Assembly: GCF_001457595.1 (NCBI RefSeq)
Contig: NZ_LN831039.1
Coordinates: 540,001 to 572,000, forward strand
Reading direction: 5' to 3'
Source of the DNA: Mycolicibacterium smegmatis
GTDB lineage: Bacteria > Actinomycetota > Actinomycetes > Mycobacteriales > Mycobacteriaceae
DNA length: 32,000 bases
In this document: piece after piece, positions 8,442 to 11,374 of the stretch
How the letters are laid out: every line of letters starts with the position of its first letter
Position numbering within the stretch: the stretch's first letter is position 1
The notes under the pieces: model-generated
What the model was told of the DNA's origin: nothing
Seen by the model: the letters and a program-made list of their open reading frames with translations, nothing else
Databases searched by the model: none
Made by a program: the position numbers and the translations under genes

Positions 8442-9077
8442 CTACAGCGCGAGCCCCCGAATCGACCACACCGTGAGGTAGGCCAGCCCGAAGAACGCCG
8501 CGACGGCGATCGCCACGCCCGTCGACTGCACATATGCCAGCGGGGCGCGCATCCAGTCGAAGGTGGCCGCGACCACCGCGTCGGGCTGGGTGACCAGATC
8601 CCACGAGTTCCAGCGCTGGAACCGGCCGATCACCACGCCGATCGCACACAGTCCCACCGACAGCACGGCGGCCAACCATCCCCAGGCCGCGCCGAATTCG
8701 CGTGAGATCCGTGTGTGCACGAGAAGCAGCGACACCACCCCGAGCAGGATGCCGGTCCAGGCCGCGAACCCGTACTGCAGCACGTGCCGCCACAGCTCGT
8801 AGCCCTCGCCGAGGTGCACCAGATCAGTGACCAGGTAGGGGGCGTTGGGAAGGAACGCCAGCCAGACCAGGCCCAGCGGTATCAGCCAGAAACGCCGCTC
8901 CGCCAGGTCGAACGCGACCGCGCACAGCATCGGGATCCAGGCCAGGAAAAGGTTCCACACCAGGAATTTGGTCGGGTACGACAGGGGAGCGGCGGGATCG
9001 GTGAATCCCAGCGCCAGTGTCAGAGCCGTCGTGGCCGCCAGCGAGATGATCAGCAGGAACCCGCGCGCTTCGGTCAT
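8442..9077 (-). CDS. Integral membrane protein, DUF1361-like, ~211 aa
   Basis: Motifs WNLFLAWIP, LPNAPYLVTDLVHL and RFQRWNSWD match my recollection of DUF1361, and there are several hydrophobic spans. ATG at 9077 (MTEARGF...) is preferred. The track start (GTG at 9125) lies inside the upstream hairpin. Confidence 0.65.
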   Translation of the reverse strand: MTEARGFLLIISLAATTALTLALGFTDPAAPLSYPTKFLVWNLFLAWIPMLCAVAFDLAERRFWLIPLGLVWLAFLPNAPYLVTDLVHLGEGYELWRHVLQYGFAAWTGILLGVVSLLLVHTRISREFGAAWGWLAAVLSVGLCAIGVVIGRFQRWNSWDLVTQPDAVVAATFDWMRAPLAYVQSTGVAIAVAAFFGLAYLTVWSIRGLAL

Positions 9078-9112: not shown

Positions 9113-9147
9113 AGAAGAGGGGCACCCACGTGGGGTGCCCCTCTTCT
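9113..9147 (-). terminator. GC-rich hairpin downstream of small-peptide gene 1 (15-bp stem, 5-nt loop)
   Basis: agaagaggggcaccc / acgtg / gggtgcccctcttct is perfectly complementary. It begins 12 nt after the stop at 9160. There is no clear U-tract after it on the minus strand (CGUUGUGG). Confidence 0.55.
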
Positions 9148-9159
9148 GACGTCGGGGTG

Positions 9160-9327
9160 TCAGCGGCCGTTGCCGAAGACGGGCTGGACGGCGCCGACGG
9201 TGGCCTGCTGCTGTGTGCTGTGGACCCAGTCGTGGTGGGCGGAGTCCGCCTGTGCCGGTGCGGCCAGGGCGAAGATGGCGGCGGCGAAGCCGGTGGCGAT
9301 GGTGGTGGCGAATCCGAACTTCTTCAT
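9160..9327 (-). CDS. Small secreted peptide paralog 1 (55 aa; predicted 27-aa signal peptide plus 28-aa mature peptide)
   Basis: ATG 9327 to TGA 9160 encodes MKKFGFATTIATGFAAAIFALAAPAQADSAHHDWVHSTQQQATVGAVQPVFGNGR. It has an n-h-c signal with AQA, GAAAGG 8 nt upstream of the ATG, a hairpin after the stop, and a paralog at 9526-9693. It is below the ORF-track size cut-off. Confidence 0.7.
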   Translation of the reverse strand: MKKFGFATTIATGFAAAIFALAAPAQADSAHHDWVHSTQQQATVGAVQPVFGNGR

Positions 9328-9402
9328 GATTCGAGCCTTTCTGTGTCGGTGTTTCCTACCCGGTTGCCTGTCACAACGAGGCCAGGTGCTCGGTAATTTC
9401 CG

Positions 9403-9430
9403 CTGGCAGTGATTGACCGCCAGATGGCAG
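9403..9430. promoter_or_regulatory. Conserved direct-repeat motif upstream of peptide gene 1 (CTGGCAG-N14-ATGGCAG on + strand)
   Basis: The same motif with the same 21-bp period occurs at the same distance (~75-103 nt) upstream of both peptide genes. The intervening TGATTGACCGC is also conserved. Confidence 0.35.
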
Positions 9431-9482
9431 CAACTGGTCGCTGCGCTGTGACCGCGCTCTCAAAACCATTGGCAGAAACGAA

Positions 9483-9512
9483 AAGAGGGGCACCCGCATG
9501 GGTGCCCCTCTT
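9483..9512 (-). terminator. Hairpin downstream of small-peptide gene 2 (13-bp stem, 4-nt loop)
   Basis: aagaggggcaccc / gcat / gggtgcccctctt lies 13 nt after the stop at 9526. It is followed on the minus strand by UUCGUUUCU, a partial U-tract. Confidence 0.6.
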
Positions 9513-9525
9513 GTGTCGCTGTGTG

Positions 9526-9693
9526 TCAGCGGCCGTTGCCGAAGACCGGCTGGACGCTGCCGACGGTGGCGTGCTGCTGGGTGTTGTGGACCCAGTCGTG
9601 GTGGGAGATATCGGCCTGGGCCGGCGCGGCCAGTCCGAAGACGGCGGCGGGGAAACCGGTGGCGATGGCGCTTGCGAATCCGAACTTCTTCAT
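9526..9693 (-). CDS. Small secreted peptide paralog 2 (55 aa)
   Basis: ATG 9693 to TGA 9526 encodes MKKFGFASAIATGFPAAVFGLAAPAQADISHHDWVHNTQQHATVGSVQPVFGNGR. It has the same length, signal-peptide architecture, SD-like GAAAGG spacing and hairpin as paralog 1. Confidence 0.7.
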   Translation of the reverse strand: MKKFGFASAIATGFPAAVFGLAAPAQADISHHDWVHNTQQHATVGSVQPVFGNGR

Positions 9694-9767
9694 GGTCCGA
9701 ACCTTTCTGTGTCGGTGTTCCTACCCTGTTGACACCCACAACCGAGGCCCGCGCCGGCAAATTTCTG

Positions 9768-9795
9768 ATGGCAGTGATTGACCGCAGGATGGCAG
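9768..9795. promoter_or_regulatory. Conserved direct-repeat motif upstream of peptide gene 2 (ATGGCAG-N14-ATGGCAG on + strand)
   Basis: Paralogous to 9403-9430. It ends 5 nt before the reactivase stop codon. Confidence 0.35.
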
Positions 9796-9799
9796 CAAT

Positions 9800-11374
9800 T
9801 CACCGATCGACGGTCAGCGCCACCAGCCCATAGGCCACCGCGAACCGATGGCTCAGCCGGCCGCACACGTTGCCGCGCCCCACCGTGACATGGTGGCCGA
9901 GTTGCTCGCTGACCGCCCGCACGAGCTCGTCATCGCTCGCGCCGCCGCCCACGAGCAGCACCCCTGCGGCCCCGGGTGCCACCTGCGCGATGCCCCGCAT
10001 CACATTGGTGCCGATCACCAGGCGTTTTGCGGCATGCCGCCAACTGCGCCATTCCGCACCCGAGAGCCTCGACGTGAAGGGGAGCAGTCCACTGGGCGCG
10101 GTCGTCAGCAACCAGCCCGTGCACCGGCCGTCGATGGGCCGGTCGAGGAACCGCCGTCTGCCGTGTTCGTCCTCAACGAGTTGGGCGGTGACCGCGGTCA
10201 CCGCCTCGGCGCGTTTCGCGTACTCCGCGGCGCTCCGCGAGATCTCCAGCGCCGTGGCTGTCGCGGTGGTCAGCAACTGCCCGGCTCCGGGCAGCACGAC
10301 GCGGGCACCGTCGGCGACCACGTCGACGGTGCCGCCGCCGACATCCACCACGACGACATCGGGGGTGACCCCGGGCGTGGTGAGTGCGCCCACGCGCGCC
10401 GCGGCCGCCTCCGAGTCGACCCGCGTGACCGGGACCCCAACGGCCTCTGCGAGTGCATCGGCGTCGGCCGGTGGGTCGGCGTCACCGCCCATCGTGGCCA
10501 GCACAAGGTTGTCCACCACCACCGAGCCGCGGCGTGAGTTCGCCTGTGCGGCAATCTCAGTCAGATCCACGACATGGGTGCGGTCGGATTCTTCGGGGGC
10601 AGGGACGCCAGATGGAGACGAGGTTGCGTCGACGGCCGCGGAATCGCTCAGGCACACCACGGCACACGCGCTGTCGTAGAGCAGGTCCGCCACCACTCGG
10701 GCGTCGACGCGTTCGTCGCCGTCCAGCGTGAAGGTGTCGGTGAGCCAGAAGGGATCGGTCAGCCGCTGCAGCGGTGTCGGACCTTGGCGCACCTCGACGG
10801 CGACCAGCGTCGTCGACAGCACCTGCGGCACGTCGACGTCGTCGACCACGGGCACCGGCGCGCGCAACCGGTTGGACACGAGCACCGCTTCGTCGTTCTC
10901 GGTGAGCACGGCGACCACGTTCGTGCCCGCCTCGACAGCCGCGTTCACCAGGCCGGCGACGTCGCGGTAGCCCCACTGCCGGGTCGCGCACGCGACCACC
11001 GGGCGGTCCGGACCGGCGACGGCGAGCTGCTCGACCGGTACCGGCGTGCCGACGCCGGCGCCGTCACCAGCGGTGGTCGCCGCGGCCCGCGTGACGATGG
11101 CGAGTCGTCCGGTGCGGCGCGACTGCAGCAGAACGCGTTCCACCGTCGAGTGCACGGGTGGGGTCGGCGCGAACGCGGCCCGGTCGATCACCAGCCCGTG
11201 GGCGTCCGCGAGGCGGCGGGCCAGTTGCGCGGCCCCGTGAACGGCGCGAAGCGATCCCTTGCCGCCACGCGTGGGGGTGCGTGCACTCGCGAGCACGTCG
11301 AGTCCGGTGTCTCCTCCGCACAGCACGACCTCGGTGGTGGCGTTCCCGATGTCGACGCCCGCCCAGACGGTCAC
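9800..11374 (-). CDS. Diol/glycerol dehydratase reactivase large (alpha) subunit-like ATPase, 524 aa (GTG start)
   Basis: Aligns from memory with DdrA/PduG/GdrA: VDIGNATTEV (cf. IDIGNSSTEV), DEAVLVSNRLRAPVPVVDDV (cf. DDGVLVSNRLEKPLPIVDEV), GALTTPGVTPDVVVVDVGGGTVD, LLVGGGAS...VGRGNVCG. GTGA overlap with the upstream gamma subunit gene. Confidence 0.85.
   Translation of the reverse strand: MTVWAGVDIGNATTEVVLCGGDTGLDVLASARTPTRGGKGSLRAVHGAAQLARRLADAHGLVIDRAAFAPTPPVHSTVERVLLQSRRTGRLAIVTRAAATTAGDGAGVGTPVPVEQLAVAGPDRPVVACATRQWGYRDVAGLVNAAVEAGTNVVAVLTENDEAVLVSNRLRAPVPVVDDVDVPQVLSTTLVAVEVRQGPTPLQRLTDPFWLTDTFTLDGDERVDARVVADLLYDSACAVVCLSDSAAVDATSSPSGVPAPEESDRTHVVDLTEIAAQANSRRGSVVVDNLVLATMGGDADPPADADALAEAVGVPVTRVDSEAAAARVGALTTPGVTPDVVVVDVGGGTVDVVADGARVVLPGAGQLLTTATATALEISRSAAEYAKRAEAVTAVTAQLVEDEHGRRRFLDRPIDGRCTGWLLTTAPSGLLPFTSRLSGAEWRSWRHAAKRLVIGTNVMRGIAQVAPGAAGVLLVGGGASDDELVRAVSEQLGHHVTVGRGNVCGRLSHRFAVAYGLVALTVDR

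Follow-up and report, generated by a model that had tools for sequence, protein, structure and literature searches.

Two paralogous small genes in tandem

A stretch of 32,000 nucleotides from the Mycolicibacterium smegmatis genome (assembly GCF_001457595.1, contig NZ_LN831039.1, positions 540,001 to 572,000) was analysed; this whole stretch is called the window here, and positions refer to it unless stated otherwise. On its minus strand it carries two tandem genes of 55 codons, MSMEG_0493 (gene 1) and MSMEG_0494 (gene 2). Both are genuine, independently transcribed, monocistronic genes, each with its own transcription start site (TSS) and a strong intrinsic terminator. The best explanation overall, which we regard as probable, is that they form a stress-induced gene pair, controlled by a SigH-type sigma factor and encoding putative exported envelope peptides of 28 residues.

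9160-9327, minus strand: gene 1, MSMEG_0493, 55 codons plus TGA (translation; exact match to ABK72016.1/AFP36961.1)
9247-9327, minus strand: signal peptide of gene 1, codons 1-27 (translation)
9163-9246, minus strand: mature 28-residue peptide of gene 1, DSAHHDWVHSTQQQATVGAVQPVFGNGR (predicted from sequence)
9526-9693, minus strand: gene 2, allele of MSMEG_0494, 55 codons plus TGA (translation; identical to P0003/CKG95090.1)
9613-9693, minus strand: signal peptide of gene 2 (translation)
9529-9612, minus strand: mature 28-residue peptide of gene 2, DISHHDWVHNTQQHATVGSVQPVFGNGR (predicted from sequence)
9336-9341, minus strand: Shine-Dalgarno sequence GAAAGG of gene 1, 8 nt 5' of the ATG (sequence)
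9702-9707, minus strand: Shine-Dalgarno sequence GAAAGG of gene 2, 8 nt 5' of the ATG (sequence)

The genes had been picked out in a reading of the DNA letters alone (the sequence-only reading), with gene 1 running from an ATG at 9327 to a TGA at 9160 and gene 2 from an ATG at 9693 to a TGA at 9526. Their translations are exactly as quoted there, and recomputation reproduced the paralogy: 45 of 55 residues are identical, and 8 of the 18 differing codons differ synonymously. The GAAAGG box before each ATG is likewise present, and a purine-rich Shine-Dalgarno sequence is kept among orthologues. The same reading took the genes to be missing from the track of open reading frames (ORFs) and did not recognise the mature sequence as any named family. 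A mechanical ORF finder does list both genes, they are annotated as "hypothetical protein" in strain mc2155, and both appear in published tables of TSSs and RNA sequencing (RNA-seq).

The locus tags were taken from the supplement of Martini et al. 2019 (PMC6448022). In mc2155 coordinates, gene 1 occupies 572636..572803 and gene 2 573002..573169 on the complement strand. Residue 15 of gene 2, inside the signal peptide, is Pro here and Ala in mc2155 (variant, UniProt A0QPR9); the protein of the window is identical to one from other M. smegmatis isolates. The duplicated unit is about 330 bp long and comprises approximately 100 nt of upstream DNA, the Shine-Dalgarno sequence, the ORF and the terminator, with a mean column identity of 88% in the alignment. 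Since this alignment runs from the upstream DNA through the terminator, the duplication spans a complete transcription unit.

The coding frame is under purifying selection

Selection was analysed on 23 distinct orthologous coding sequences of 168 nt from genome loci. The sense frame, which is under purifying selection, contains no stop codon in any of the 23, its ratio of nonsynonymous to synonymous substitution rates (dN/dS) is 0.27, and nucleotide variation peaks at third codon positions. Calculated by part, dN/dS is 0.19 for the signal peptide and 0.375 for the mature part. In each of the other five frames, between 7 and all 23 of the orthologues are interrupted by stops, and dN/dS there runs from 0.44 to 2.6. 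The selection on a coding frame that the silent changes between the paralogues had suggested is thereby shown directly.

The rival view, that the element is not protein-coding and represents a duplicated regulatory or RNA element or a plus-strand gene, draws on the fact that one antisense frame shares the wobble positions of the sense frame and that the GC-rich DNA of this region holds long antisense ORFs. However, stops break the three antisense frames in 7, 17 and 20 orthologues out of 23, with dN/dS between 0.44 and 2.5 as against 0.27 in sense; the frame that shares the wobble positions has stops in 17 of 23 and a dN/dS of 0.44. The caveat of the sequence-only reading about the antisense frame is settled, because only the sense frame stays free of stops, with the lowest dN/dS. 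There is also no Rfam match in the window, the mapped TSSs lie on the minus strand, and the protein length of 55 residues is kept in hundreds of sequences. The non-coding or plus-strand reading is effectively refuted.

Start sites, promoters and hypochlorite induction

A primary TSS was mapped for each of the two genes by Martini et al. 2019 (PMC6448022); the log-phase read counts at both are small, which points to low basal expression. Coordinates of mc2155 were converted to the window with an offset of 563476.

9365, minus strand: TSS of gene 1 (mc2155 572841), 5' untranslated region (5'UTR) of 38 nt (Martini et al. 2019 supplement)
9730, minus strand: TSS of gene 2 (mc2155 573206), 5'UTR of 37 nt (Martini et al. 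2019 supplement)
9375-9400, minus strand: SigH-type promoter of gene 1, GAAAT at 9396-9400, N18, GTT at 9375-9377 (sequence and TSS)
9740-9765, minus strand: SigH-type promoter of gene 2, GAAAT at 9761-9765, N18, GTT at 9740-9742 (sequence, TSS and Hillion Table S7)
9113-9147, minus strand: terminator hairpin of gene 1, AGAAGAGGGGCACCC-loop-GGGTGCCCCTCTTCT, then CGTTGTGG (fold -38.5 kcal/mol, z = -6.0)
9473-9512, minus strand: terminator of gene 2, 13-bp stem, 4-nt loop and TTCGTTTCTG tail (terminator scan; fold -34.2 kcal/mol, z = -6.2)

Relative to the mapped TSSs, GTT lies at -12..-10 and GGAAAT (gene 1) or AGAAAT (gene 2) at -36..-31, and the TSS of gene 1 coincides with the A of a cAGACCGG box that is conserved throughout the family. 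The SigH consensus is GGAAT-N18-19-GTT in Corynebacterium glutamicum (PMC10012870) and GGAAY-N18/19-GTT in M. tuberculosis and M. smegmatis (PMC5430705). The -35 pentamer GAAAT has one mismatch to GGAAT/GGAAY, which the source paper tolerates. Orthologues of other species carry a perfect GGAATTAA at -35, the spacing of 18 nt between the -35 pentamer and the GTT is kept across the family, and the family consensus reads GGAATTAA-N15-GTTTAA. For MSMEG_0494, Hillion et al. 2017 (Table S7, PMC5430705) already list GAAATTTGCCGGCGCGGGCCTCGGTT as a SigH promoter with its -10 element at -47 from the ATG; MSMEG_0493 has the same kind of promoter geometry and its own TSS.

Due to the position of GAAAT-N18-GTT at -36..-31 and -12..-10 of mapped TSSs, we strongly infer that transcription is driven by SigH, the extracytoplasmic function (ECF) sigma factor of thiol-oxidative and heat stress, or by one of its M. 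smegmatis paralogues. The species has seven sigH paralogues, and we therefore name the type of sigma factor rather than the individual protein. In the RNA-seq data of Hillion et al. (Table S5, PMC5430705), taken 30 min after addition of sodium hypochlorite (NaOCl), MSMEG_0494 reaches an M-value of 8.08 (271-fold, rank 23) and MSMEG_0493 an M-value of 7.83 (approximately 228-fold, rank 27). The pair is accordingly among the roughly 30 most NaOCl-induced genes of the genome.

Other modes of control were considered. A scan for sigma-70 promoters returned none. A SigF promoter (GTTT-N15-17-GGGTA), raised by a GGGTAGG box, was rejected because the mapped TSS precedes this box and because the elements are spaced by 12-13 nt. 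No riboswitch or structured leader was found with Rfam or by folding of the 5'UTRs, and the M. smegmatis 5'UTRs fold no better than shuffled sequences. A subset of orthologues (L004, L005, L008, L009, L011, L014, L030, L035, L044, L062 and others) have a longer 5'UTR with a strongly conserved box GTCCGAACC-(4 to 15 nt)-GGCTCGAAC about 40-75 nt upstream of the ATG, and M. smegmatis retains a degenerate version of it fused to the Shine-Dalgarno sequence (ACCGACACAGAAAGGCTCGAA). The TCCGAACC...GGCTCGAAC box of these longer leaders forms a stem of only 5 bp, with no covariation in RNAalifold.

The GC-rich hairpins that had been noticed after the stop codons are present, begin 12-13 nt past the stops and have z-scores of about -6; for each gene, 0 of 200 shuffles folded equally well. 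The terminator scan passes one of the two, that of gene 2. Its U-tract (UUUUCGUUUCUG) is the better one, that of gene 1 (CUCGUUGUGG) being weak. A terminator hairpin GAGGGGCACCC-loop-GGGTGCCCCTC directly after the stop codon is conserved in sequence and structure in nearly all family members, across species and across the two cargo families described below.

The downstream gene for a DUF1361 membrane protein (MSMEG_0492) is leaderless, with its TSS (572553, window 9077) exactly at its ATG (9075-9077, minus strand). Because this gene has its own TSS, the peptide genes are not its leader ORFs. An ORF starting from GTG 9125 over-extends it into the terminator of gene 1, since the TSS maps onto ATG 9077.

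One upstream cassette serves two cargo families

All family members are preceded by a cassette of approximately 80 bp, gATTcCTGCCA-N11-CAATTtCTGCCA-nC-GGAATTAA-N5-TGACCT-N4-tGTTTAA-N5-cAGACCGG. Besides the SigH-type promoter it contains two direct repeats.

9404-9433, minus strand: direct repeats TTGCTGCCA and TCACTGCCA of gene 1, CTGCCA at 9425-9430 and 9404-9409 (pattern search, conservation)
9769-9798, minus strand: the same two direct repeats before gene 2, CTGCCA at 9790-9795 and 9769-9774 (pattern search, conservation)

The 10-bp repeats, ATTnCTGCCA, are spaced by 21 bp, lie at -65..-60 and -44..-39 and abut the -35 element; those of gene 2 begin 5 nt past the stop codon of the diol dehydratase reactivase gene. 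The pattern has 2 matches in the window where 0.03 would be expected, is at least 90% conserved over 72 family loci and stands upstream of every family gene in L004-L066 and L067-L186. A DNA-binding factor, a candidate activator or repressor, probably acts at these two repeats beside the -35 element. A literature search on the direct-repeat motif gave nothing relevant.

Joint Genome Institute (JGI) metagenomes were scanned with a pattern made of the second repeat, the -35 element and TGACCT only. This yielded 120 loci, and in 108 of them the cassette is followed by an ORF. Roughly 70 of these ORFs encode peptides of the family (recognised by an HxxW motif), and some 25-30 encode an unrelated secreted family of about 99 residues (...GPGNAQDTISxLQAxGYxVIVNRxGxTPL...TVYVDVK). 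The first repeat, absent from the query, was at least 90% conserved in both cargo classes. The 99-residue family has the same MKKFGFAT...AQA-type signal peptide and the same cassette; it numbers at least 530 members, all hypothetical, and has no match in Pfam or the Protein Data Bank (PDB). As the conservation of the terminator hairpin, too, extends over species and cargo families, it seems that one unit made up of promoter, signal peptide and terminator has been inherited or spread. Loci with the 99-residue family are L056, L063, L059 (4676-5279) and, among the metagenomes, for example L067, L071, L076 and L083. A smaller third type of cargo (...PHYSVDNHDxVNTTNGFVD) occurs in L051 and L057.

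Further cargo may exist in M. smegmatis itself. SigH promoters that closely resemble the family cassette, of the form GGAATTA-N5-CTGACCTGC-N2-GTT, are found outside the window on four other strongly NaOCl-induced hypothetical genes (Hillion 2017 Table S7, PMC5430705): MSMEG_6470 (induced 3970-fold), MSMEG_6472 (898-fold), MSMEG_6498 (427-fold) and MSMEG_4499 (121-fold). Judged by these promoters, the four genes may be additional cassette cargo; in a homology search made to connect them with the 99-residue family, the top matches listed were all metagenomic. Just past the terminator of gene 2, the stretch at 9461-9480 (minus strand), cgTTTCTGCCAATGGttttga, fits the cassette consensus TTTCTGCCAATGG(AATTAA) over 13 bases and diverges thereafter; it looks like a relic of a third unit of repeat and -35 element, perhaps a scar of the tandem duplication.

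Signal peptide and mature peptide

The features of a textbook Sec signal peptide that the sequence-only reading described, and the 28-residue mature peptides it predicted, were confirmed in the sequence. The n-region is M-K-K in both proteins, with K2 and K3 at least 90% conserved. It is followed by a hydrophobic h-region of 19 residues (FGFATTIATGFAAAIFALA; mean Kyte-Doolittle hydropathy 1.77, and 1.59 in gene 2) and by a c-region A-P-A-Q-A ahead of an Asp, in which A25 and A27 do not vary and P24 reaches at least 90% conservation. Neither protein contains a lipobox Cys, any other Cys or a twin Arg in the n-region, as a lipoprotein or a Tat substrate would. We infer that the 27 N-terminal residues are a Sec signal peptide cleaved by signal peptidase I (SPase I) after A-Q-A. 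The predicted mature peptides have masses of 3030 and 3124 Da, an isoelectric point of about 6.3 and a net charge of -1, and contain neither Cys nor Met.

AlphaFold2, run with the family alignment, returned a single helix over residues 3-46 and a C-terminal tail of low confidence (mean predicted local distance difference test score 76 overall, 82-83 over residues 21-40), and the model predicts that the N-terminal half is helical. This continuous helix crosses the predicted cleavage site, and it could be taken to mean that the signal is not cleaved, so that the product is a membrane-anchored small protein whose 28-residue tail modulates an envelope complex as MgrB does with PhoQ. The stronger constraint on the N-terminal segment (dN/dS 0.19 vs 0.375 in the tail) would fit, as would its conservation even in a different cargo family, beyond what a generic signal peptide needs. 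AlphaFold2, however, routinely renders signal peptides helical, which makes the model uninformative on cleavage, and its single long helix is of no help for fold comparison either. P-A-Q-A followed by D has the canonical form of an SPase I site, with Pro at -4 and small residues at -1 and -3, and A-x-A is present in essentially all members. An uncleaved anchor therefore has only a slim chance of being the right description.

A peptide family whose named hosts are Mycolicibacterium

A search of 5.8 billion clustered proteins found 204 homologues at E <= 1, nearly all of them exactly 55 residues long, and a profile search, run against 1.84 billion cluster representatives, yielded 181 proteins with E <= 1e-3, which are small apart from two spurious repetitive matches. 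The search for relatives with methods suited to small ORFs, which had been proposed together with the sequence-only reading, thus uncovered a family. Every match with a species name belongs to Mycolicibacterium (smegmatis, mageritense, septicum, peregrinum, porcinum, setense, cosmeticum, arenosum, moriokaense, agri, brisbanense and hodleri); the others come from genomes of Mycobacterium sp. or from metagenome-assembled genomes of soil or water. No homologue from M. tuberculosis or another named slow-growing species was among the matches; as far as these show, the family belongs to fast-growing mycobacteria of the soil. A phage or plasmid origin was rejected, as tblastn gave no match to the peptide family in phages or plasmids.

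For both peptides and ten diverse relatives, nothing scored above threshold in Pfam, NCBIfam, PDB sequences or Rfam; weak matches to WGxxGxxG, UrcA and LytR_C lie in the region of the signal peptide or score far short of the cut-offs. A literature search for HHDWVH found no match, and neither MSMEG_0493 nor MSMEG_0494 was matched in main texts.

Three subfamilies share one core: the GNGR type found here, a type ending in VPQVDTSVHQSR, and a longer type with a spacer of 15-25 residues between signal peptide and motif. Over 311 family sequences the core is A-[D/G]-[I/V]-x-H-[H/L/N]-x-W-[V/L/I]-x-[D/Q/N]-I-[Q/G]-[Q/P]. The motif HHDWVH, which had been called invariant, is so between the two paralogues but not family-wide: the first His is found in 100% and the Trp in 98% of the sequences, the second His is present in 75% and otherwise replaced by L, N, Q or R, and the third His is present in 35%. 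The C-terminus lies almost always 24 residues past the invariant His and is usually Arg. Several genomes contain tandem arrays, with four copies in L061 and three in L018.

Gene neighbourhood and the question of B12 and metal binding

On the coding strand, the order of genes is diol/glycerol dehydratase large and small subunits and reactivase (MSMEG_0497 to 0495), MSMEG_0494, MSMEG_0493, the DUF1361 membrane protein gene (MSMEG_0492) and a LacI regulator. All ORFs within 5 kb were clustered for 63 genome loci, and no neighbour was shared across synteny groups. At least five such groups exist. Their neighbours include a gene resembling isopropylmalate dehydrogenase, the hsaACDB genes of steroid degradation together with a LysR regulator, a membrane protein rich in Pro, and oxidoreductases; the dehydratase neighbourhood is limited to M. 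smegmatis. With no conserved neighbour, neither the B12 dehydratase nor the DUF1361 gene nor any other gene was accepted as an operonic partner.

The reactivase gene (9800-11374, minus strand) is a single intact ORF of 524 residues here and in two other M. smegmatis assemblies. The gene calls of CP000480 (mc2155) split it into pieces of 270 and 256 residues (L003 3955-5528), and the table of Martini et al. has one MSMEG_0495 for it. The split could be a frameshift or sequencing difference, or an artefact of gene calling.

The position directly downstream of the dehydratase and reactivase genes had led the sequence-only reading to conjecture a link to cobalt or B12, and the His, Asp and Trp residues of the motif to suggest metal or cofactor binding. 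Secreted peptides that bind metal or corrinoid through HHDWVH and are functionally tied to the cobalamin-dependent diol dehydratase operon would account for the His-His-x-Trp-x-His of both paralogues and for the His-His dyad in 75% of the family. Oxidative-stress regulons also often contain metal-handling proteins. The conservation pattern does not single out metal binding, however: of three His, two Asp and one Trp, the family fixes no more than the first His and the Trp; the second His is replaced in 25% of the sequences and the third is present in 35%. If cleavage follows A-Q-A, the His residues stand at mature positions 4 and 5 (D-S-A-H-H) and do not form an amino-terminal copper- and nickel-binding (ATCUN) motif, which needs His at position 3; and in the long subfamily the motif lies 15-25 residues from the N-terminus.

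The link to the operon fares no better. The dehydratase synteny is found in M. smegmatis only, the other five synteny groups differ, each gene has its own TSS and terminator, and the regulon is that of SigH and NaOCl, not of B12 or cobalt, with no riboswitch and an unstructured 5'UTR. Because the neighbours elsewhere are unrelated and promoters and terminators are separate, the basis for a B12 or cobalt link is removed. We give the combined proposal a low probability, and its B12-linked form is counted as excluded along with the non-coding reading.

Proposed function

In the explanation that we favour, stress of the NaOCl type would lead a SigH-type sigma factor to transcribe both genes, while a second DNA-binding protein would act at the two ATTnCTGCCA repeats upstream of the -35 element. 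The signal peptide would be cleaved after A-Q-A, releasing the 28-residue peptides to the cell envelope or the medium. Their functional module would be [D/G]-[I/V]-x-H-[H/L/N]-x-W-[V/L/I]-x-[D/Q/N]-I-[Q/G]-[Q/P] together with a tail of fixed length. The peptide may work stoichiometrically in the envelope through the His/Trp face of a short helix, and could buffer an oxidant or a redox-active metal such as Cu, or attach to the membrane surface or to a protein of the envelope. The most likely role is that of an extracytoplasmic arm of the SigH oxidative-stress response, a speculative assignment that we hold to be possible rather than probable. An enzymatic role is less likely, and so is one connected with the neighbouring B12-dependent dehydratase.

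Several points weigh against this explanation. SigH dependence is deduced from the promoter motif and from co-induction; the -35 element GAAAT is one mismatch off GGAAT; and Hillion et al. (PMC5430705) left MSMEG_0493 without a SigH assignment. The conserved repeats imply an additional regulator beyond SigH. Export and cleavage are predicted, and a signal peptide that is more conserved than the mature part and common to another cargo family is unusual for a plain export signal. At the protein level, the supplements of Hillion et al. 2017 mention the genes only in RNA-seq tables, the pair is absent from the small-protein supplements of Shell et al. 2015, and the supplements of Li 2015 on H2O2 RNA-seq contain no such evidence. 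The mature peptide is neither amphipathic nor cationic (hydrophobic moment 0.10-0.19), lacks Cys and Met, the residues most reactive towards hypochlorous acid (HOCl), and has only one His that is invariant in the family. Given low amphipathicity, no Cys or Met, a single invariant His and an export that is predicted, the envelope-protective mechanism is only a guess.

Some of these properties also bear on two other functions of small exported peptides. One is signalling: the peptide would be a pheromone of the alarm or quorum type, exported on SigH stress and detected by a pair of sensor and response regulator that binds the repeats and brings about auto-amplification. Two conserved repeats with a 21-bp period that abut the -35 element have a geometry typical of response-regulator-activated pheromone and bacteriocin promoters in Firmicutes. 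Small peptides that are putatively exported by Sec and share a conserved C-terminal module of constant length, in a lineage-specific, diversifying family with tandem arrays (four copies in L061, three in L018), would suit such a function, and a histidine kinase, MSMEG_0980, is within the NaOCl/SigH-induced set (Hillion 2017, PMC5430705). Nevertheless, SigH alone accounts for the induction, and the genes have no conserved neighbour that encodes a receptor, kinase, regulator or processing protease. The literature search on the motif did not identify a factor that binds the repeats, and a precedent for mycobacterial peptide pheromones was not found. We thus consider signalling unlikely. In a wider and still less likely version, the peptides and the co-regulated 99-residue family would constitute a "stress secretome" module of fast-growing mycobacteria, in which the 28-residue peptide would be an intercellular alarm signal, exported in response to SigH-activating stress and sensed by a two-component system whose regulator amplifies expression at the repeats. 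If true, a pheromone circuit built on a ribosomal peptide would thereby be described for the first time in mycobacteria.

The other function is that of a Sec-dependent, bacteriocin-like antimicrobial peptide used under stress, which is very improbable. The small, predicted secreted product, the variable multi-copy family in soil bacteria and the direct repeats in the promoter are compatible with it, but a net charge of -1, a hydrophobic moment of 0.10-0.19 and the absence of Cys are not what it calls for. Moreover, no immunity or transporter gene is conserved nearby, and the family was not found on plasmids or phages.

Comparison with known systems

The closest regulatory parallel considered is the actinobacterial SigH/SigR (ECF12-type) regulon for thiol-oxidative stress, as in M. 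tuberculosis (SigH), Streptomyces coelicolor (SigR) and C. glutamicum (SigH). The GGAAT-N18-GTT layout at the right distance from the TSS is shared, as is massive induction by hypochlorite alongside trx, clpB, dnaK and further genes of the regulon, and the MSMEG_0494 promoter has already been listed as SigH-type. Classical members of the regulon are cytoplasmic redox enzymes, chaperones and proteases, whereas the genes described here encode predicted exported, Cys-free peptides of 28 residues. Furthermore, the -35 element is GAAAT, and two upstream direct repeats are not a described feature of SigH promoters.

Spy and CpxP (LTXXQ) of Escherichia coli are likewise small Sec-exported proteins strongly induced by a stress regulon, export being a prediction in our case, and they are thought to act stoichiometrically outside the cytoplasm, as is proposed here. 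Some family members of 67 residues carry the automatic JGI label 'Spy/CpxP family protein refolding chaperone', which no test here supports. The peptide family has no LTXXQ/CpxP match at E <= 10 in Pfam or NCBIfam, and a mature peptide of 28 residues is too short for the helical cradle of Spy, which has about 140 residues.

The Phr pro-peptides of Bacillus and other Gram-positive pheromone precursors resemble the proteins in length (40-60 residues), in having a Sec signal peptide and a short exported product, in forming paralogous, lineage-specific families and in using promoters of alternative sigma factors. In contrast to these systems, there is no adjacent Rap/RNPP-type receptor, modifying enzyme, dedicated transporter or conserved neighbour, no evident further processing site and no sequence similarity.

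Finally, the mycobacterial RicR regulon of small copper and oxidative-stress proteins (MymT, LpqS, SocA/SocB) also includes stress-induced small ORFs in tandem, and CusF-like periplasmic Cu(I) binders use His and Trp, so that a His-His dyad beside a Trp could in principle bind Cu(I). The present genes differ in that no RicR/CsoR palindrome lies upstream and control is SigH-type; sequence similarity to these proteins was not detected, and the His dyad is not invariant.

Significance

The existence of the gene pair and its NaOCl induction are already public in published tables. Four points were undescribed in the literature that we found: that these peptides form a family, that they share an HxxW module of fixed length, that they are restricted to Mycolicibacterium, and that one cassette of repeats, promoter and signal peptide serves two kinds of cargo. 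Small exported proteins under the stress control of an ECF sigma factor are a familiar kind of product; this family has no detectable known relative. Medical relevance is indirect, since the family is found only in Mycolicibacterium and Mycobacterium sp. genomes and in no named pathogen. The genes are short, duplicated and non-essential and reside in a tractable host, which makes them a promising lead for experiments at little cost.

The SigH response is the main mycobacterial defence against oxidative and heat stress and has been described almost wholly through cytoplasmic redox enzymes and chaperones. That two of the roughly 30 most hypochlorite-induced genes belong to an uncharacterised family with predicted export points to an unexamined extracytoplasmic arm of this response. 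The combination of shared repeats, SigH-type promoter and signal peptide on two unrelated cargos provides a handle on a second regulator, and the cassette also informs how small secreted proteins join a stress regulon.

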